DNA from: a virus
Taxonomy: Duplodnaviria; Heunggongvirae; Uroviricota; Caudoviricetes
DNA length: 64,000 nucleotides
Reading direction: 5' to 3' (one strand)
IMG/VR virus record: IMGVR_UViG_3300024333_000003
Position 1 is the first letter of the stretch. Every line of letters begins with the position of its first letter. The notes beneath the pieces were generated by a model. That model had not been told where the DNA came from. It made no database searches and was given only the letters and a program-made list of their open reading frames with translations. Made by a program: the position numbers and the translations under genes. Below, in pieces: positions 4,809 through 35,546 of the stretch.

Positions 4809-6452
4809 TTAGAATATCAAATCGATCTTAATATAATTTACTGGATATGGTGGTAATATTGTTATACTTACCAACACAGTATCCCTGCTTACAGTATCCT
4901 GTGCAACAGATGCTACAACAAAATCATTCAAAATTCCATCACGTATTAACAAGCTACCGGCGCCCTTTATCGCGATTGTAATCATATCTAATGTAGCACG
5001 ATTAATTACATATCTACCAATAAATGGCTCTACGGCACTACGTACAAATTTCGCTGTATAATCTACAGTTTTTGTAATACTTACTTCACGTTTTTCTATC
5101 GAACTCATGTCGGTCGATAACTGATGACGACATACGATAGGAGACGTGAGTTTTGATTGCTTCAAAATATAAGTTCCGCCTTGTGCGATTGTATTTAATT
5201 GTGCTTCAGTGAAATAATCGGAACTATATTTTAGTGAATTAATGTTTGCTAACGAAAGGTTCGTCATTGGTTGTTGTGGTGTATTTCCCGCAATCATGCC
5301 TGCTACTGCTGGCACACCTATTACTGAAATAGGTACTGGTACATAAGCATAAAAGAACACATCACCAGTTTCCATAGCATGCGCTCTTAATGCCAACCAT
5401 AGTGCTTCAGTTATTTCTACACCAAGTCCAGCAACTGGACGAACTGTGTAATTTCGGTAAGCTGTTTGTGAATTGGTGGCACTAAATGTTACTAATTGAT
5501 CGATGTATGCATTTACAGTTACACTATAACCGCTCGTATATAAATCACTAATATACTGGGGTCTCAATGTTGAGATATGTCTTAGTTCTCTTATAAATGC
5601 TACATCAGGGAAAACGTAAATAACGCGTTTTGCGCCTACGCCGGCCGACATTGCAGAATAAGCGGTCGCAGTAGCTGCTTTTGATGCACCCCAAGGAATC
5701 TTAGGCCCACCAAACACTATTCGCTCTTTCTTAGCTGTCGATAACGACATAGCGTTTACATGTGTTTTATAATTTGCAATAATTGCTGTATCATAAGTTA
5801 ATGGCGCTAACGCGTACACTTCTTTTGCTTCTAAATCTGTCATAGCCAACGTGTGACTTGCTGAGGCAGTTGCAATACCTGACACATTACAAGTAATAGA
5901 TGCAAAATCGTCAACAACAGTTCCGTATGCATATGTAGCTGCGTTACCGTTATTCAAAGTCTCGACCAACGCAAATCCCAACGGATTCAGCGCCGATACA
6001 TCTGTCATTTCATCTACAACGGCTTGTAAAGATTCATATAATTCTACCGACATCAGATCTGAACGTAATGCGCGATAACCGATAAACACAGAGGCGCCAT
6101 TCCAATCAGCATTAGCCGGAACGGTCACTGTGCCGGCATTCGCATCTATCGTCAGTCCACTTGCTATAATAAGACGAGATCCCACTGGATTGGTCACTGT
6201 ACCAGTAGCTTTCATAACTAGATCAACATAGACTGACGTCGAATCTAAAGCCATTCCTGCTTCAAAACCATGCAATGTATAAGTTGTCTGTGAGCCATCA
6301 AATACAGCATAATCACTGTCTTTGGTTGAATCTAATGCTTCTACATGGTACGCTGGGCCAATAACAGCCGGTACTAAATCTGGCTGAATTAGTGTTGGAG
6401 AAACTGTCTTTTGAATTTGATTTACCTCTACTTGAGGCGGATTATATGCCAT
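4809..6452 (-). CDS. putative contractile tail sheath-like protein
   Basis: 547 aa with Thr/Ser/Ala/Val-rich composition typical of sheath proteins, followed by a ~220-aa tube-sized gene. No motif-level proof. Confidence 0.35.
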   Translation of the reverse strand: MAYNPPQVEVNQIQKTVSPTLIQPDLVPAVIGPAYHVEALDSTKDSDYAVFDGSQTTYTLHGFEAGMALDSTSVYVDLVMKATGTVTNPVGSRLIIASGLTIDANAGTVTVPANADWNGASVFIGYRALRSDLMSVELYESLQAVVDEMTDVSALNPLGFALVETLNNGNAATYAYGTVVDDFASITCNVSGIATASASHTLAMTDLEAKEVYALAPLTYDTAIIANYKTHVNAMSLSTAKKERIVFGGPKIPWGASKAATATAYSAMSAGVGAKRVIYVFPDVAFIRELRHISTLRPQYISDLYTSGYSVTVNAYIDQLVTFSATNSQTAYRNYTVRPVAGLGVEITEALWLALRAHAMETGDVFFYAYVPVPISVIGVPAVAGMIAGNTPQQPMTNLSLANINSLKYSSDYFTEAQLNTIAQGGTYILKQSKLTSPIVCRHQLSTDMSSIEKREVSITKTVDYTAKFVRSAVEPFIGRYVINRATLDMITIAIKGAGSLLIRDGILNDFVVASVAQDTVSRDTVLVSITILPPYPVNYIKIDLIF

Positions 6453-25137: not shown

Positions 25138-26052
25138 TTATGCATTTGACCAAGTTAATTTTGCAACTGCCTTGTTGTTGATAATAGCCATACCAATGGT
25201 CTCATATGCGGACCACTTAATCAGGTTACGTTTCTTCTCTATCCAGAATTTAACATCGTTTAGGACATAGAATTTACCCATAAATTCCTGAGGTGCGAAC
25301 GCATACATTGTGCCTTCTGGAACCAAATCGCCCTTAATTGTCGTTACGAACTTTTTGCCCAAAATTGTTGCGTATTTAAAACCGTTAATATACACTTCAC
25401 TTGCAGCCGGCGAACCTACTGTCGTTGCAGGTAGTGTAGCTAGTTTATTGTAATCTGCTTGGTTCATTAACACTACATCAACTACCAATGGATTTGTTCC
25501 AGTTGTGGAATCTTCCATCTTGTTGAATAGTTTTGTGAACATGTTCAACTCCATAATTCCTGAAGTTGTGGTTGTGTACGTTACCGTCTTACTCGAAGCT
25601 GCAACTGCTGCTGCTACTGCAGTCATGAATGCTGTATCTTCAATCTTCATGATCTCTTTTACTGCATTACGTTCAACTAGTTCAGTTATTGGCATTTCAT
25701 ATGCTAATAGCTCTTCTTCAACCTTTTGGAATTCTTTCGAACTAATACCAAAGAAAGAAACCTCTGCACGGTCGCCTTCAACGTATTGAACGTCTGGTTG
25801 TCCGCGTAGAGTAATCATCATTGCACCTGCATCCGGTTCGATGTCAACGATTTTAACTAATTGCTCGTGTAATGTAGTACGCTGTAAATCAGCCTTAGTT
25901 ACATATTGTGGGTTAATAATTTTGCGAGAAAATGCGTTCTCACGCAATTTGGTACGAATATACTGACCAACCTCTTGTGCCACCTTCTCTAATTCAGTAT
26001 CAAGGCGGTTAACGAAAATTTCGTTCAATGCTTTAGTGTTTACACTTTCCAT
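25138..26052 (-). CDS. putative major capsid protein (HK97-fold size class)
   Basis: 304 aa. Immediately followed by a strong terminator, the typical position and expression context for an MCP. No motif proof. Confidence 0.4.
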   Translation of the reverse strand: MESVNTKALNEIFVNRLDTELEKVAQEVGQYIRTKLRENAFSRKIINPQYVTKADLQRTTLHEQLVKIVDIEPDAGAMMITLRGQPDVQYVEGDRAEVSFFGISSKEFQKVEEELLAYEMPITELVERNAVKEIMKIEDTAFMTAVAAAVAASSKTVTYTTTTSGIMELNMFTKLFNKMEDSTTGTNPLVVDVVLMNQADYNKLATLPATTVGSPAASEVYINGFKYATILGKKFVTTIKGDLVPEGTMYAFAPQEFMGKFYVLNDVKFWIEKKRNLIKWSAYETIGMAIINNKAVAKLTWSNA

Positions 26053-28261: not shown

Positions 28262-28289
28262 TATTAACGAAAAATTTACTTAATGTCAA
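28262..28289 (-). promoter_or_regulatory. sigma-70-like promoter TTGACA-16-TTAATA with an SD-containing leader
   Basis: Minus strand reads ccctaTTGACAttaagtaaatttttcgTTAATA...aggagaactttctATG. Confidence 0.45.
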
Positions 28290-30042
28290 TAGGGATGTAA
28301 TCTATAACGTCGTTGTAAAATTTTTCTAGTTTGTCTGGCTTCAATCCCAAGATAAGACGATCTATTGCATCCAAAGAGTATTCGGATGTTTTTGCCATGA
28401 CCCCGATAGGGGGCATTTTCATTATCTTGTGAAGCTGGCCTAGGGTAAATGTGCCGCCCGCGCCAGCTAGAAATGGATGACGTCGTACGAAGTCTCCAAA
28501 TTCAGTTATCGGCTCACCTTTCTGAAGTTTTGCTTCTTGTGATCCAGCATAGATATACGATGCTGGCACAGCCATAAGCAAACGTTTCAAAAAATGTGGA
28601 CGTATGATAGCCGCGGTCTTATTAAACATAAGATCTTGGATTCCAACAGTGCCGGCTGCTGCCGCACCCAACACGATAGGAATAAGCCATGGTTTTGATA
28701 GGAGAAATTTTTCAAAGTTTCCCGTTTCCGCAAGAGTTTTTCCAGTCAGCCCAATCTTATCCATCAAGGCATTGTAACCAATATACAATGCGCCCAAACC
28801 CAATAACGGCATCAACGGATTTTTTATAGGAGCAAAAGTAGATTCCGCCGGACGTTTCAAGGTTGGGGCATGAACTCCTGGATTAATAGTAATTGCTACG
28901 GGCGATGACTCTGTAGTGAGTTCGGCCCGTTTTATCAAAACACGTTTTATAACATGAGGAACTGTTAATGACATACCTGGTGCCCAATGAGCAATTTTTT
29001 GGGCTAGTTCGTCATTAAAGTTTTGAAGTGATATATCATTTGGAAATTCAGGATCTTCATCCATATCCATTAATGATATGTTAGAGTCGTAACACGACTC
29101 GGCTAATTTTTCTTGCCCGCCCTTTGATAGAATAATGTATTGAAATTCTGTCGGAGTCGGAACTATACGCATACCCAACATAGTCGAAAGAATTTCATTA
29201 GATGCATATTTTGCTACTACTTCTTTTAATTCTTCTTTAGGCATCGGTTGTTGTGATGCGTATATTAAACGCTTCGGATCCGCATCAACAGCCGCTATTG
29301 TACCATCAACCAATTTATTTATAGCTGATTCTTTTACACCTGATTCTTTGAAGAACTGTTGCGCTATTACTGCTGATGGAATTTCAGCTTGTACAGATGC
29401 AATTTTACTAAGTACACTAGCGGTACGATCGGCTGGAATTCGTACAAAACTAATATCAAAAAATTTCAAATCAGTATCATTTATAGCGTAAATTTTTTGA
29501 CCGTCTGGTAATGTAATGCCCATTTGATTTTTTAAATGATCACAATAGTCAGACACGCGCTTGCTTTTTTTCTTACATATACTGCATGTGTCAAAGGGAA
29601 CTTTTACCCCCATAGACACTGCTGGATATTCGCCTTTTTCTATACGATCAAGAATTTCTTTTGCCCGTTCATTGTCAAGCTCAAGCACTAGTTCGACACG
29701 ATGCATATCGGGATTGAATACCGCGATCTTTACCTGACCAAAACTTTTCAAGGGATCTTTGTTCACATGATGCTTGTATGCGTGCCCAAGTTTTTCAAAT
29801 GTCTTGTGATCACGACATAACGACAAGTCGGGGAAATAATCGCCATTGCGATTTGGACCCCAGAATTCGCCAGATCCCATTGCGTTAACAAGCACATACG
29901 TCTTGCTTGCTTTCTTTTCGAGCCCTTTTACACGATCACGGAGTTCTTGTGAATATTCAGCAGTCTTCGTTAACGAGTCTGACCAGAATTGAATAAAAGT
30001 TCCGGAATCGTTATGTAAATCAAAACTTGTAAATTTTATCAT
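28276..30042 (-). CDS. large head-morphogenesis protein (portal and/or prohead protease candidate)
   Basis: 588 aa. Position between the terminase and the scaffold genes. Confidence 0.3.
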   Translation of the reverse strand: MIKFTSFDLHNDSGTFIQFWSDSLTKTAEYSQELRDRVKGLEKKASKTYVLVNAMGSGEFWGPNRNGDYFPDLSLCRDHKTFEKLGHAYKHHVNKDPLKSFGQVKIAVFNPDMHRVELVLELDNERAKEILDRIEKGEYPAVSMGVKVPFDTCSICKKKSKRVSDYCDHLKNQMGITLPDGQKIYAINDTDLKFFDISFVRIPADRTASVLSKIASVQAEIPSAVIAQQFFKESGVKESAINKLVDGTIAAVDADPKRLIYASQQPMPKEELKEVVAKYASNEILSTMLGMRIVPTPTEFQYIILSKGGQEKLAESCYDSNISLMDMDEDPEFPNDISLQNFNDELAQKIAHWAPGMSLTVPHVIKRVLIKRAELTTESSPVAITINPGVHAPTLKRPAESTFAPIKNPLMPLLGLGALYIGYNALMDKIGLTGKTLAETGNFEKFLLSKPWLIPIVLGAAAAGTVGIQDLMFNKTAAIIRPHFLKRLLMAVPASYIYAGSQEAKLQKGEPITEFGDFVRRHPFLAGAGGTFTLGQLHKIMKMPPIGVMAKTSEYSLDAIDRLILGLKPDKLEKFYNDVIDYIPIDIK

Positions 30043-30619: not shown

Positions 30620-31567
30620 TTATCCTCGATAGTTTACTGGAATATTGTGTAACGGGCTATTTTCTCGTTTTATTGTTTCCTTAGCCACAACTGGAAGTGC
30701 TAATGCGCCTATTCCAGTACCAACAGCTAGACCAGTACCAAATACTGCTGGGTGCTTTAAAACTTTTTTCACTGTCTCACCAATTACTCCACCAAGTTTA
30801 TAAAGTTCCCATTCTTCGTATAGTTGTGCAAGTTTATCTTGCAGTGTTTTATACTCATTAGCAATCTTTATTAACAATAACGATTGTTGAAACAAAGGAT
30901 GGCGTGTGTTTACCGGATGTGTATAAGCCACATCCGCTGTTTTTGTCATAGATCCAATCGGCATATTGGAAGTTAACCTGGTTTCCACTTCCTTTAACGT
31001 TTCAACAAATATCGGGTCATTATTTATACTAAGTGCCGCACTAATATCGTTATAACTTGTGCCACCAAGTACTGCTTGTTTTATCATGTCTTCCAGAACG
31101 CACGCTTCCTTTGCAAACAATAATTGACCATCAGTAATCATTCCCAATATAGTTGCTTCAGCTGCCTTAAAACGCCAATAGTCTTTTAACTTAGCATCTG
31201 CAGCTTCTTGCGGCTGAGTTTCTGCGACCTTTTCAAAAATAGGTGCAAACTCAGGAACTTCGTATTCTGGAGCTTCGTAATAATCGATATTATAATTTTT
31301 AGTTTCGGCCGTCTTTGTCGATGTAGTTGCGGCCTGAATAGCTATTGGATCTGCAGTATCAAATTGTATATATTTCTCATCACTCTTGTTAAATAAATTC
31401 ATATACACATCGGTGTTGGCAGCTTCGATTACCCTAGCTACTTGTGCTTGATTTAATCCATTATCCGCCGCAATTTTTATGATCGACTCATTTAGCGACT
31501 TTCCGTCTTTCAGGTACTCTGTTGCTGCTTGTTTAGCAAAGAGTTCTAATTCATAACTTGATACCAT
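30620..31567 (-). CDS. hypothetical protein with C-terminal Gly-zipper
   Basis: GTGLAVGTGIGALALPVV. Confidence 0.3.
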   Translation of the reverse strand: MVSSYELELFAKQAATEYLKDGKSLNESIIKIAADNGLNQAQVARVIEAANTDVYMNLFNKSDEKYIQFDTADPIAIQAATTSTKTAETKNYNIDYYEAPEYEVPEFAPIFEKVAETQPQEAADAKLKDYWRFKAAEATILGMITDGQLLFAKEACVLEDMIKQAVLGGTSYNDISAALSINNDPIFVETLKEVETRLTSNMPIGSMTKTADVAYTHPVNTRHPLFQQSLLLIKIANEYKTLQDKLAQLYEEWELYKLGGVIGETVKKVLKHPAVFGTGLAVGTGIGALALPVVAKETIKRENSPLHNIPVNYRG

Positions 31568-31603
31568 GTAATTGATTCTCCTATAGTAGATTATACAAAA
31601 ATC

Positions 31604-31981
31604 TTAACTCTCAGTCAAGACCTTAAGTAATTCTGTTTTGAATGCAGCGATCTTGCTTGCATTTATACCTTTAAACCCGGGAGCAGTGCGTTTCATACCA
31701 ATAGCATTAATACAGCCAGGAGTAGTACGATTATTACTACCTATTTTTTCGACACCTGCGTATGAAAATACCACTTTTTTTGCTACTTCCCGTTCTTCGG
31801 GGTTTAAGTTGTGAAATACGTTAGCTATTTGTTTAGCTGACTCTAGCACTGTTTTAGGAGTAGCTAATGGTTGATGCGCTTCGGTCCTTTTTGTGTTTAG
31901 ATAAAGTTTAGTTAATCTTTCATTTACCGCGTTGCCGGAAGTATCGGTAAGCCTTGAAAAACGTTTAATAGGTGTCTTCAT
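31604..31981 (-). CDS. hypothetical protein
   Basis: ORF. Confidence 0.3.
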   Translation of the reverse strand: MKTPIKRFSRLTDTSGNAVNERLTKLYLNTKRTEAHQPLATPKTVLESAKQIANVFHNLNPEEREVAKKVVFSYAGVEKIGSNNRTTPGCINAIGMKRTAPGFKGINASKIAAFKTELLKVLTES

Positions 31982-31992
31982 ATAGTTCTTTA

Positions 31993-34653
31993 TTAATTAT
32001 TAAATGCAGAGGCACGGTAATATAATTCTGCAGCCAGGTCTCCATACAAAATGCTATGGAAGGTGTCGTCGGCGGCAGACTTAATATATCTGTACGTGTT
32101 CTTTTCTTCGTTATATTCAATCGCAATAGCCAGTATATCTTTCGCATAATATTGAAAGTCACTCCATTGCGGGAAAACGATCTTCCGCTGTTTTATCTTA
32201 GTAAATAAATCAGTCATCACGGTGTTGCGAGATAAGGTATATGCCTGAATATGCCCATTGAACTGACCACGTTGTTTTTGATTCGGCACATGTTGAAATG
32301 CTATTAATCTGGTTTTATCATTTATACGATTTCGTACTTCAGCATTCACTGCCTCACCAAAACCGGCATCAGCTCCTATTAATGCACAGCCCCATCTGTA
32401 ATATTCTGCCGGTATATGCTCATGTAGATAAGCATAATCAGCTTCTTTACCTTCATACTTATGTAGGTAGATTATTTCTGTAACATCACCGCGACGTTGC
32501 GAAATTGTCATCAACGTTTTTGACATTTCGCTGTTAATTGGCCCCCAGTCCATTCCCATAAACGTGGGATAATCTCTGGTGCGACGATCTGGTTCCTGAA
32601 TCATTGGCCCACCAGTGCAACATGCTTTAATTTCCTCTTCGGTTACTGGAGCGACACCGGCATCATATGGTAGCCCTAGATACTCGTTAAAAAATACGCC
32701 TTTGGATTTTGTTTGAAATGGTATATAAACATCCGTCTGCCAATTTACCCAAGGCGCGTGGGCAAACATTAAAACACTAACTCTAAACCCCTCAAACAAG
32801 TACGATCCATCATGAATAGATTTGTCTGATTCGGGATTTGTACGCACCCATTGTCCGTTGCGCGCGTCTAGAGACATTTTGCAATATCTACAAGCAAGCC
32901 CCCATGGTTGAATGTTTTCTTCGTCAAGAAAGTTTTGTTTCTCACAATGCTGGCATTTTGCAATCCATTCATTTCTAGTAGTCTGACGCCATCGATTTGC
33001 TAATGGCCCGATAATATGTTTTGGAGTTCCTGCATATATCGAATGTTTGTAAAATGATCGCGCCATTGTTTGTTCAATGACATCGATGTTATCATCGGGA
33101 ATATCTTGGATTTCGTCCAGACACTGATGACACACTATAGGTAACTTTTCTATCGCATCTCTTACAAAAATCAAGTGATTCTTTACGCCGACACAATAAA
33201 CTGGTCCAATGTAATCTATATATTCGATGCGCGAATTATTTGTATATCCGTTCCAAAATATTATGCTGTCTTTTTTATAGCGTCCGACGTTATATAAAAT
33301 TGTTCCGTTATATGCTGGTTTTCGACTTCTAATACTACAAAGATACCCCAAGCGAAGCCATGCCTCCTGTACTGTATTTGCTAACTCGATTGATGCTGTA
33401 ACTAACTGTCCCCCGTTATGACCGAAGTCTTGTACATGCATGGCATCTCCTTTATATAAGGCATTTAAAAGGTCCGGTAGATATTGTATGTAATTTAATA
33501 ATTCCCTAGGTATATATTTATCATGCGAGGTGCCCAAAGCATATAAGTATCTAGATAAAGCAGCGTTTGCAAAGTAAAATGTATTACATACAGCATTTTT
33601 ATTATGTCTGGCAACAACGCCCCATTTAACTCCCATTGCTGTTAAGCAATGTCGAATTTCGTCTGAGTATGCACCTTCGTTTTGTATTATACGTATTTGT
33701 CCCGCAGGAGATATATACCCCTCAGCTAAAAACCACCCCATAAATTGCATGAAAATTTTCAATGGCGCTGAAAAACTGGGTATCTTTTTGGGATATTTAT
33801 ACGGAGATCCGTCTAACTTATTTGCAACAATTTGTTCAGGTAATTTAAAATCGACGGGATTGGCTGACTCCCAATTTCCCCTAACACCTAATTTAAAATT
33901 TTTTCCTGCTAACTGTTGTGCTTTTATATTAAACCAGCCTTTAACTTTTGGATTCTGATAGTAACCAGTACTTAATTCCTGTGATACGTTCATTATATGA
34001 TCAGGGGTCACGCAAAGATTAAAACTGCGCTGCGTAAATTTAACTAGTTTACCTTGATATGCTTTTTGGATATACATATCGGGTAAATGATATTCTACCA
34101 TTCCCGTTTTGTCATTTACTGTAGCAACTCTTTCATCGTCGAGAAGATTTTTAAATAATTTCCAACCATTCTCGGTGAGAATTTCTGTATTTGCATCAAA
34201 ACAATTCATGTCAGCAGATATACCACGAATACGATCGGCAGTTGCAGATCCATAACGTAAATAAATAACACTACCATTAAGGAAACGTTTTTGGAATACG
34301 TTTTGAATTGTGGAACTACTTACAAAATATTTTTTAAATATCGGGCTTTGTTCTATAACAGTATCAACACGATCATATGAAAATACGCGTACCTGTTCAA
34401 CAGTGGGCGATACTGCCAAAATTTTAAATCCACCCTTATGCCTGTTGCTAACATATGGCATTAAAATACATTTAGCTAACATGAAATTTGACAGCGTGGT
34501 AGATTTAGCGACTTGGCGACTCGTATGTAAACACAACTTCATTGGATCAATATCATAAATCAATTTCATGTGTGGATAGTCATCCAAACTGAATGGTTCA
34601 TTATTAAGATAAAAAAACTTTTGTACGAAGTCTGATAATTTAAATTGTAACAT
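31993..34653 (-). CDS. terL: terminase large subunit interrupted by an intein (extein ~526 aa)
   Basis: N-terminal deviant Walker A TSRQVAKST. A Walker-B-like LDE is reconstituted across the intein. C-terminal nuclease-sized domain. Confidence 0.7.
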   Translation of the reverse strand: MLQFKLSDFVQKFFYLNNEPFSLDDYPHMKLIYDIDPMKLCLHTSRQVAKSTTLSNFMLAKCILMPYVSNRHKGGFKILAVSPTVEQVRVFSYDRVDTVIEQSPIFKKYFVSSSTIQNVFQKRFLNGSVIYLRYGSATADRIRGISADMNCFDANTEILTENGWKLFKNLLDDERVATVNDKTGMVEYHLPDMYIQKAYQGKLVKFTQRSFNLCVTPDHIMNVSQELSTGYYQNPKVKGWFNIKAQQLAGKNFKLGVRGNWESANPVDFKLPEQIVANKLDGSPYKYPKKIPSFSAPLKIFMQFMGWFLAEGYISPAGQIRIIQNEGAYSDEIRHCLTAMGVKWGVVARHNKNAVCNTFYFANAALSRYLYALGTSHDKYIPRELLNYIQYLPDLLNALYKGDAMHVQDFGHNGGQLVTASIELANTVQEAWLRLGYLCSIRSRKPAYNGTILYNVGRYKKDSIIFWNGYTNNSRIEYIDYIGPVYCVGVKNHLIFVRDAIEKLPIVCHQCLDEIQDIPDDNIDVIEQTMARSFYKHSIYAGTPKHIIGPLANRWRQTTRNEWIAKCQHCEKQNFLDEENIQPWGLACRYCKMSLDARNGQWVRTNPESDKSIHDGSYLFEGFRVSVLMFAHAPWVNWQTDVYIPFQTKSKGVFFNEYLGLPYDAGVAPVTEEEIKACCTGGPMIQEPDRRTRDYPTFMGMDWGPINSEMSKTLMTISQRRGDVTEIIYLHKYEGKEADYAYLHEHIPAEYYRWGCALIGADAGFGEAVNAEVRNRINDKTRLIAFQHVPNQKQRGQFNGHIQAYTLSRNTVMTDLFTKIKQRKIVFPQWSDFQYYAKDILAIAIEYNEEKNTYRYIKSAADDTFHSILYGDLAAELYYRASAFNN
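33124..34203 (-). mobile_element. intein (360 aa) with a LAGLIDADG homing-endonuclease domain inside terL
   Basis: Block A CFDANTEILTENG. Block B CVTPDHIMNVS. LAGLIDADG-like FMGWFLAEGYIS and LLNALYKGDAMH. Block F VYCVGVKNHLIFV. Block G LPIVCHQ followed by +1 Cys (C-terminal Gln instead of Asn). Confidence 0.6.
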
Positions 34654-34655
34654 AA

Positions 34656-34931
34656 TTATTTTCTATTTATAAACGTACCGCCAACACTATTCCATTCTGA
34701 CACACCGTCTGTGCCATATAGCTTTTTTTGTCGGACTTTATTTTCACCTTGTCGTTTTACAAAATCAGGGCCTAATAATGTTTTAATCTCGCGGTCCAAC
34801 GCTTTATCTTGTGCTTTACGAAAAAGCCGCATCTGCCGTTTATTACCTATTCGCTGAGCCTTTAAAAAAGCACGCTCATATAATTCTGAACTTAACGCTA
34901 ATTTCTCCATTACAATCTCTGCTTTTGTCAT
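34656..34931 (-). CDS. hypothetical protein
   Basis: ORF. Confidence 0.3.
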   Translation of the reverse strand: MTKAEIVMEKLALSSELYERAFLKAQRIGNKRQMRLFRKAQDKALDREIKTLLGPDFVKRQGENKVRQKKLYGTDGVSEWNSVGGTFINRK

Positions 34932-34932
34932 A

Positions 34933-35442
34933 TTATCTCCTTGCCAATGATTTAGTACGTGTATCTATAAATTTTCTTGCGTCAGCGTCAGCGATTTCAT
35001 CAACCCATTGCTCGCGATTTATCAGATGTGGATAACGTTTTATTGCCGGTTCTCTTCGAAATAATCTATGAGTGATATTACCTTTCTCATCGGTGCCAAA
35101 AACATTAATGTGGAACTCTTTACCGGCCTCAGCTGTGTCTACAGCAAGATCTTTGAATTTTAATGTGGTGTCATTCATACTTGATTTCAGTTCGTCCATG
35201 AATCCTGCATATAACGGATGTTCTTTAGAAATCCAGCGAACGCCTGATTTGGATGAAAATGTATTCATGAGTTCAGGTATTTTATGTGAACCCATGAGTT
35301 TCTCAACTATTGGCGCAAATAATTTCTTGGTAAACTGCGCTTTTGCCGGATTGGCAGCTAGTGCTGCCGCTAATCCTAAAGTAATGGCCTTAGATTTAAG
35401 ACCGGCGTCTTTATTAATGTTTAACTGATTTGCGTCTTCCAC
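34933..35442 (-). CDS. hypothetical protein
   Basis: ORF. Confidence 0.3.
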   Translation of the reverse strand: MEDANQLNINKDAGLKSKAITLGLAAALAANPAKAQFTKKLFAPIVEKLMGSHKIPELMNTFSSKSGVRWISKEHPLYAGFMDELKSSMNDTTLKFKDLAVDTAEAGKEFHINVFGTDEKGNITHRLFRREPAIKRYPHLINREQWVDEIADADARKFIDTRTKSLARR

Positions 35443-35546
35443 CCTGTCCCCGATATTTACAAATACTGCCTTTATGCCGACCTATTTTTGTAAATGTACC
35501 AGCTCCTTGACGAGTATTTTTCTTACTTCCGCCTTTATATGGAGCG

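Follow-up and report, generated by a model that had tools for sequence, protein, structure and literature searches.

The large terminase gene of an uncultured large tailed phage is interrupted by an in-frame insert of 360 amino acids (aa), which is very probably a mobile class-1-type intein with a Hint domain and a nested two-motif LAGLIDADG endonuclease, inserted in a gpA-type large terminase (TerL). The gene lies on a stretch of 64,000 nucleotides of the IMG/VR virus record IMGVR_UViG_3300024333_000003 (Caudoviricetes; the whole stretch is called the window below). This reading is backed directly by the insert and its boundaries, by intein-free alleles, by the fold, by conserved catalytic residues, by amino acid constraint and by the abundance of terminal Gln at the insertion site. 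In the program-made list of open reading frames (ORFs) the gene is a minus-strand ORF of 886 aa (31993–34653), and the insert, ORF residues 151–510, maps exactly to 33124–34203. An earlier sequence-only reading had proposed a LAGLIDADG intein of 360 aa in the terminase at these positions; coordinates and length proved exact, and the gene strand had to be corrected to minus, the plus strand of 33124–34203 giving a translation riddled with stops and no gene. The insert begins with CFDANTEILTENG (CFDANTE...) and ends PIVCHQ, followed by CLDEIQD, with junction codons AAT/TGT at its N-terminal end and CAT CAG/TGT at its C-terminal end (the slash marks the junction), so that the ending ...IVCHQ followed by Cys was read correctly from the start. 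The same holds for the protein that remains once the insert is removed, a TerL of 526 aa reading ...GISADMN-CLDEIQD. The chance of 360 stop-free codons, estimated from base composition (36% GC), is ~1e-11, and homologs of the insert number 6138 cluster representatives (E ≤ 1e-3); because of these two results, the insert is not a chance feature.

Many TerL homologs of 519–537 aa lack exactly these 360 residues. The intein-free TerL P0003 is 83% identical by BLASTP (86% at the amino acid level in the alignment), and its gene, located in locus L001, shares 78% DNA identity with the spliced window gene. The L001 allele reads ...GAT ACA AAT/TTA ATA GAC GAA... (ADTN/LIDEVQD), with no insertion or deletion at the junction. 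Spliced and intein-free proteins are equally long, and removal of the insert closes exactly on the intein-free alleles, as for class 1 inteins.

Homologs of the insert occupy a wide range of unrelated host proteins, among them RNR, PolB, MCM and NAD-dependent epimerases, with constant boundaries, Cys ... [NQ]/[CST]. When a profile of 30 family members was compared with PDB sequences, it matched PI-PkoII at E = 3e-16 and archaeal VMA inteins at E = 1e-15, as well as PI-PfuI; among mini-inteins, it matched AceL NrdHF (E = 1e-7) and, only weakly, those of Mtu RecA (E about 7e-3). A phmmer search of PDB with the single intein sequence returned nothing, and the family profile was needed. The AlphaFold (AF2) model of the insert had a pLDDT of 93.3 and a pTM of 0.92. 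Its top Foldseek matches were all full-length intein-endonucleases (TliVMA, PhoVMA, PI-SceI, PI-PfuI and PI-PkoII; E 4e-15 to 4e-9), and further matches were the LAGLIDADG enzymes I-DmoI and I-SceI, then mini-inteins. By both the AF2 model and the family profile, the insert has a Hint fold. On the single sequence, the Pfam model LAGLIDADG_3 (PF14528) matched intein residues 246–311 at 28.1 bits (cut-off 22.5). The sequence-only reading had staked itself on two points, that the segment is no native domain of homologous terminases and that Hint-domain similarity can be found. Alignment with the intein-free TerL homologs bore out the first, and the above-cut-off LAGLIDADG_3 match, the profile matches to solved inteins and the fold matches bore out the second; the interpretation as a LAGLIDADG intein in the large terminase is thereby supported.

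Block A, block B, two LAGLIDADG motifs and block F, all of which the earlier reading had named, were found in the insert as described (Table 1). In an alignment of 30 inteins, C1, T66 (B:7), H69 (B:10), G252 and D253 were invariant and C337 (F:4) nearly so, and the first residue was Cys in 215/218 family members. Cys1, Thr66 and His69 thus provide the block A nucleophile and the block B Thr-x-x-His of class 1 inteins. The two LAGLIDADG motifs, FMGWFLAEG (E161) and LYKGDA (D253), agree with the PF14528 match and with the structural matches to I-DmoI and I-SceI. Because both acidic residues are kept, homing activity of the predicted endonuclease is likely, with the intein-free L001 junction given above as a putative target. 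Selective constraint was estimated codon by codon against a sister intein at the same site (P0001, 63% aa identity, locus L003). Synonymous sites were saturated in this comparison, and pN was accordingly set against pS in place of dN/dS; pN was 0.24–0.28 and pS 0.68–0.84. Non-synonymous divergence of the exteins in the same comparison was similar (0.18–0.21), and the endonuclease part was as constrained as the rest of the intein.

The host ORF matched Pfam GpA_ATPase and PHROG 675, terminase large subunit (E = 6e-53). Removal of the insert raised the GpA_ATPase (PF05876) score from 29.7 to 42.9 bits (cut-off 25.6), with a match continuous over residues 39–217. When the spliced TerL was aligned with 28 intein-free homologs, R46, Q47, K50, S51, D153 and E154 were invariant. 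In the AlphaFold model of the spliced protein (pLDDT 89.2), a beta-strand at 149–153 (M-N-C-L-D) runs up to D153-E154, which in the model is the arrangement of a Walker B motif. Because D153-E154 are invariant and residues 149–153 are predicted to form this strand, the intein splits the Walker B beta-strand between Asn150 and Cys151, two residues ahead of the catalytic Asp-Glu; the junction had already been called Walker B-like from its sequence, correctly so. Foldseek matches of the spliced model included the terminases T4 gp17, Sf6 gp2, HK97, D6E and P74-26; the TerL profile had no real match among PDB sequences, and it was the fold search that supplied these relatives. The Pfam score above cut-off, Walker A, the Walker B Asp-Glu and a TerL fold with a C-terminal nuclease together identify a gpA-type large terminase. 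In the unspliced precursor of 886 aa the ATPase active site is split, and the precursor is presumably inactive in DNA packaging.

Table 1. Positions in the window of the interrupted terminase gene, its intein and their motifs.
Feature	Position	Strand	Evidence
Large terminase (gpA-type TerL) precursor ORF including intein, 886 aa	31993..34653	-	ORF list; Pfam GpA_ATPase; phrog_675 E=6e-53
N-extein, aa 1-150, ends ...GISADMN	34204..34653	-	Sequence reading
Walker A / P-loop SRQVAKST (N-extein)	34498-34521	-	R46, Q47, K50, S51 invariant; model strand 39-44, loop, helix 50-68
Intein, 360 aa: Hint splicing domain and nested LAGLIDADG homing endonuclease (very probable)	33124..34203	-	Missing from close homologs; profile and AF2/Foldseek matches
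Block A, CFDANTEILTENG, Cys1 as N-terminal nucleophile	34165..34203	-	C1, L9, T10, G13, W14 invariant (30-intein alignment)
Block B, VTPDHIMN; Thr66 is B:7, His69 is B:10	33988..34011	-	T66, H69 invariant
LAGLIDADG motif 1, FMGWFLAEGYIS, acidic residue Glu161	33709..33744	-	G162 invariant, G156 nearly; end of model helix 148-161
LAGLIDADG motif 2, LLNALYKGDAMH, acidic residue Asp253	33436..33471	-	G252, D253 invariant; model helix 239-253; Pfam LAGLIDADG_3
Block F, VYCVGVKNHLIFV; F:4 is Cys337, not Asp	33163..33201	-	C337 nearly invariant (30-intein alignment)
Block G, PIVCHQ; penultimate His359 (CAT), terminal Gln360 (CAG, 33124-33126)	33124..33141	-	Codons; register agrees with 218 homologous inteins
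C-extein, aa 511-886 and stop; nuclease half of TerL downstream of Walker B	31993..33123	-	Sequence; conservation; Foldseek
+1 Cys codon TGT	33121-33123	-	First C-extein codon
Walker B end, C-L-D-E	33112-33123	-	D153, E154 (spliced numbering) invariant

The His-Gln end of the intein, with Cys at +1, is real: its register is set both by the equality of spliced and intein-free lengths and by alignment with 218 homologous inteins. A strict class 1 intein would end in Asn in place of this Gln, for which function as a substitute is documented (PMC4031507). Across the family the terminal residue was overwhelmingly Asn, and the penultimate residue was Gly, not His, in 200/212 members; His ahead of the terminal Gln makes the window intein unusual within its family. 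The distribution of terminal Gln was strongly uneven. At the window site (site A; TerL, N/C-h-D-E), 12/18 lineages were Gln-ended, the window intein included, compared with 9/195 at all other family sites pooled (Fisher p = 3e-10, with phylogeny left uncorrected). In a Pfam scan of the Gln-ended lineages drawn from the representative library, ten in all, every one matched GpA_ATPase (E ≤ 2e-5), and nine scored above the curated cut-off. The nearest relative of the window intein ends Lys-Asn (AAA AAT), against His-Gln (CAT CAG) in the window, and a change from Asn to Gln takes two nucleotide changes. A neighbour-joining tree, rough and unbootstrapped and used solely for this point, showed Gln and Asn interleaved, implying at least four switches. 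The sequence-only reading had called the C-terminal Gln atypical, which is true of inteins generally and fails at this TerL site, where Gln is the majority state and has splicing-competent precedents (PMC4031507). We conclude that terminal Gln, though uncommon among inteins generally, has precedents and is not confined to this phage.

Both Gly-Asn and Gly-Gln forms occur in a related intein of NAD-dependent epimerase/dehydratase at RS/CYDEGKR (P0061–P0068 and P0071–P0078). The epimerase C-extein starts C-Y-D-E, which resembles the C-h-D-E of TerL; a link between this shared context and Gln is a hypothesis and not a finding. Other Gln-ended family members precede SDKE, CGVD and THQED. A broader reading would join the site A census, the switches and the epimerase recurrence: inteins at the Walker B site of gpA-type TerL might form a natural Gln-preferring clade, with at least four Gln/Asn switches, in which an extein context of Cys+1 followed by Asp-Glu selects glutarimide-forming inteins. 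We regard this broader reading as possible, although unlikely.

From established intein chemistry (PMC4031507), splicing of the terminase precursor would start with an N-to-S acyl shift at Cys1, giving an N-terminal thioester (step 1), and trans-thioesterification would then move the N-extein onto Cys+1 (step 2). In step 3, Gln360 would cyclise to an aminoglutarimide, where Asn would form a succinimide, and release the intein, the penultimate His359 and the His of block F probably assisting. A final S-to-N acyl shift (step 4) would yield the TerL of 526 aa, ...ADMN-CLDE..., with its Walker B strand intact. In homing, co-infecting relatives whose terminase lacks the intein would have that allele cleaved by the endonuclease and the intein copied into it. 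Gln-terminated inteins are known to splice by Gln cyclisation, and the PolII inteins of Pyrococcus abyssi (Pab) and P. horikoshii (Pho) and the Mma PolII intein do so slowly (PMC4031507, PMC8175363).

Several points weigh against a functional class 1 intein. On the single sequence, the Pfam Hint and Intein_splicing models gave no match and the NCBIfam model intein_Nterm stayed below its cut-off (16.2 vs 24.5 bits); these sub-threshold Hint models are the only weak point of the intein evidence, and they are outweighed by the profile and fold evidence. The F:4 residue is Cys and not Asp, the commonest residue at this position. Gln slows step 3 in the characterised PolII inteins (PMC4031507), and we infer splicing, Gln cyclisation and endonuclease activity of this particular protein from its characterised counterparts. 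Finally, the window covers 64 kb of a contig of ~215 kb, and a second intact terminase elsewhere in the genome is possible.

The last two points would suit a degenerate, splicing-dead intein, in which the change from Asn to Gln or other drift blocks C-terminal cleavage; this copy of the terminase would then be a pseudogene, or a further terminase gene would make up for it. The canonical Asn is indeed missing from the intein end, and Gln slows splicing of the Pab and Mma PolII inteins (PMC4031507). However, the frame of 886 codons is intact, non-synonymous change in the intein is as constrained as in the exteins, every other catalytic residue is kept, and no second copy of this intein was found within the 64-kb window. 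Gln is, moreover, the majority state among 18 independent TerL lineages at site A, in an essential gene. Loss of splicing is therefore quite improbable.

Still less credit is given to a class-3-like route, in which Cys337 of block F (F:4), and not Cys1, would attack the N-terminal junction first. F:4 is Cys in at least 162/212 family members, the family profile matches the class 3 AceL NrdHF intein, and class 3 inteins are thought to be phage-derived and occupy the Walker B motif of mycobacteriophage TerL (PMC4031507, PMC5050341). Class 3 inteins lack Cys1, however, whereas here Cys1 is present and nearly invariant in the family, and Cys is the second commonest F:4 residue in class 1 inteins (PMC4031507). 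As read from the sequence, B:12 is Met (Met71) and not Trp, and G:5 is Cys (Cys358) and not Thr, so that of the class 3 signature only the F:4 Cys fits. Since Cys1 is there and the triad lacks its Trp and Thr, the class 3 assignment was rejected, and we consider such a route very unlikely. A native accessory domain, an in-frame free-standing endonuclease or a group I intron insertion is effectively refuted: although only the LAGLIDADG part passes a curated Pfam threshold on the single sequence, the segment is precisely missing from close homologs, its ends carry Cys1 and His-Gln/Cys with the motifs of blocks A, B, F and G, the whole model, Hint domains included, superposes on intein-endonucleases, and homologous elements with the same boundaries sit in dozens of unrelated host proteins. 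The group I intron was separately rejected by an Rfam scan of 31500–35500, which found no intron or other RNA.

The class-1-type intein of the window was compared with known systems. In mycobacteriophages, TerL inteins at ATPase motifs, Walker B included, splice efficiently in reporter assays, and cleavage of intein-free alleles is known for some of the endonucleases (PMC5050341). Like TerL1-e of that group (Kelley et al., 2016; PMC5050341), the window element is a mobile intein at the Walker B motif of a phage TerL ATPase; in both cases inteins are sporadic among related phages and splicing is required to assemble the active site. Unlike it, the mycobacteriophage inteins have as their host the terminase_1-type TerL of actinophages, and TerL1-e itself clusters with the class 3 inteins, whereas the window intein interrupts a gpA-type TerL of an uncultured phage of 37% GC, carries Cys1, a class-1 signature, and belongs to those with a Gly/His-Gln end in place of His-Asn. 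No close sequence relation between the two was detectable. The Pab and Pho PolII inteins share with it Cys1, the penultimate block G His, a Gln at the C-terminal end, and Cys+1 (PMC4031507, PMC8175363). They differ in being mini-inteins of 166–185 aa without a homing endonuclease, in coming from hyperthermophilic archaea and in not being sequence relatives of the window intein, and for them slow, temperature-dependent splicing with Gln has been shown experimentally (PMC4031507, PMC8175363). The RNR intein of Chilo iridescent virus (CIV) is likewise viral and has Gln natively at its C-terminal end, but it belongs to a eukaryotic virus, another host protein and another lineage. According to the account of Amitai et al. 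(2004) given in PMC4031507, it splices better with Gln than with Asn, and it is a precedent for reading Gln as adapted, not as a defect. The closest solved structures are VMA inteins of archaea and yeast, PI-PkoII and PI-PfuI (PDB 7qsu, 7qss, 1vde, 2cw7 and 1dq3), in which a two-motif LAGLIDADG endonuclease is likewise nested in a Hint domain; they differ in host protein, in sequence (10–16% identity) and, for most, in a His-Asn end and Asp at F:4.

Comparison of the homologs P0005, P0011, P0023, P0028, P0031 and P0033 with the window (equivalent region 33100–34230) revealed three intein sites in a span of 9 residues along the Walker B strand of TerL: RGx/S (spliced residues 145 and 146), N/ChDE (150 and 151, the window site) and hhDE/CQD (154 and 155, site B). 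P0005 carries two full inteins with just five extein residues (SVDKI) between them, and P0031 carries three inteins. Some intein-free TerL alleles (P0006, P0007, P0008, P0014, P0038 and P0039) have Cys at +1 of site A (ADMN-C-IDE) and/or at site B (DE-C-QD); the +1 Cys could be a footprint of precise intein loss or mark a pre-adapted homing target. The P-loop of the same TerL family is interrupted by a different intein (SRQVAK/C...THN/ST) in P0009, P0016, P0025, P0026 and P0034; that of the window is uninterrupted. Locus L001, of a related phage that lacks the TerL intein, has an insert of ~372 aa (HAYKHH/C...HN/CNKDP) in a prohead-protease-like gene (L001:11345–14227), and the window homolog of this gene (28276–30042, minus strand, 78–82% identity) has none. 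Between the two loci, intein distribution is thus reciprocal and patchy.

The prohead-protease-like gene, a major head protein (25138–26052) and a tail sheath (4809–6452) are neighbours of the terminase and agree with the structural module of a tailed phage. A 7-kb megablast search of INPHARED phages gave no match, and tblastn against INPHARED gave only distant TerLs and distant inteins (e.g. in Lak megaphages), with no close relative. An unannotated region of Prevotella phage Lak-A1 (MK250015–MK250018, ~504197–505309) matched the intein part of the query (aa 141–498) at 28% identity (E = 2e-22), so that an intein of this family may be present there.

The public JGI gene call P0002, a partial call identical to window 31993–33741 that sits on a metagenome contig of 214,965 bp, has 582 aa and starts at intein Met155 (MGWFLAEG...). 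This call is wrong because its start lies inside the intein; the true terminase of the phage is the spliced product of 526 aa. Inteins in terminases, insertions at Walker B, LAGLIDADG inteins and inteins ending in Gln have each been described before, and the present case extends the well-known targeting of terminase ATPase motifs by inteins to one more phage, large and uncultured. Among the papers searched, none joined "terminase" with a C-terminal Gln intein, which is weak evidence of novelty. The wider point lies in the census alone: inteins ending in Gln are more numerous at this Walker B site than those ending in Asn, a result that is useful, yet will not surprise intein specialists. The TerL site thereby offers a natural panel for the study of Gln cyclisation and for the engineering of slow or conditional inteins. 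If inteins at this site do form a Gln-preferring clade, a possible reason would be a slowed or gated step 3, such that the terminase becomes active only late in infection.

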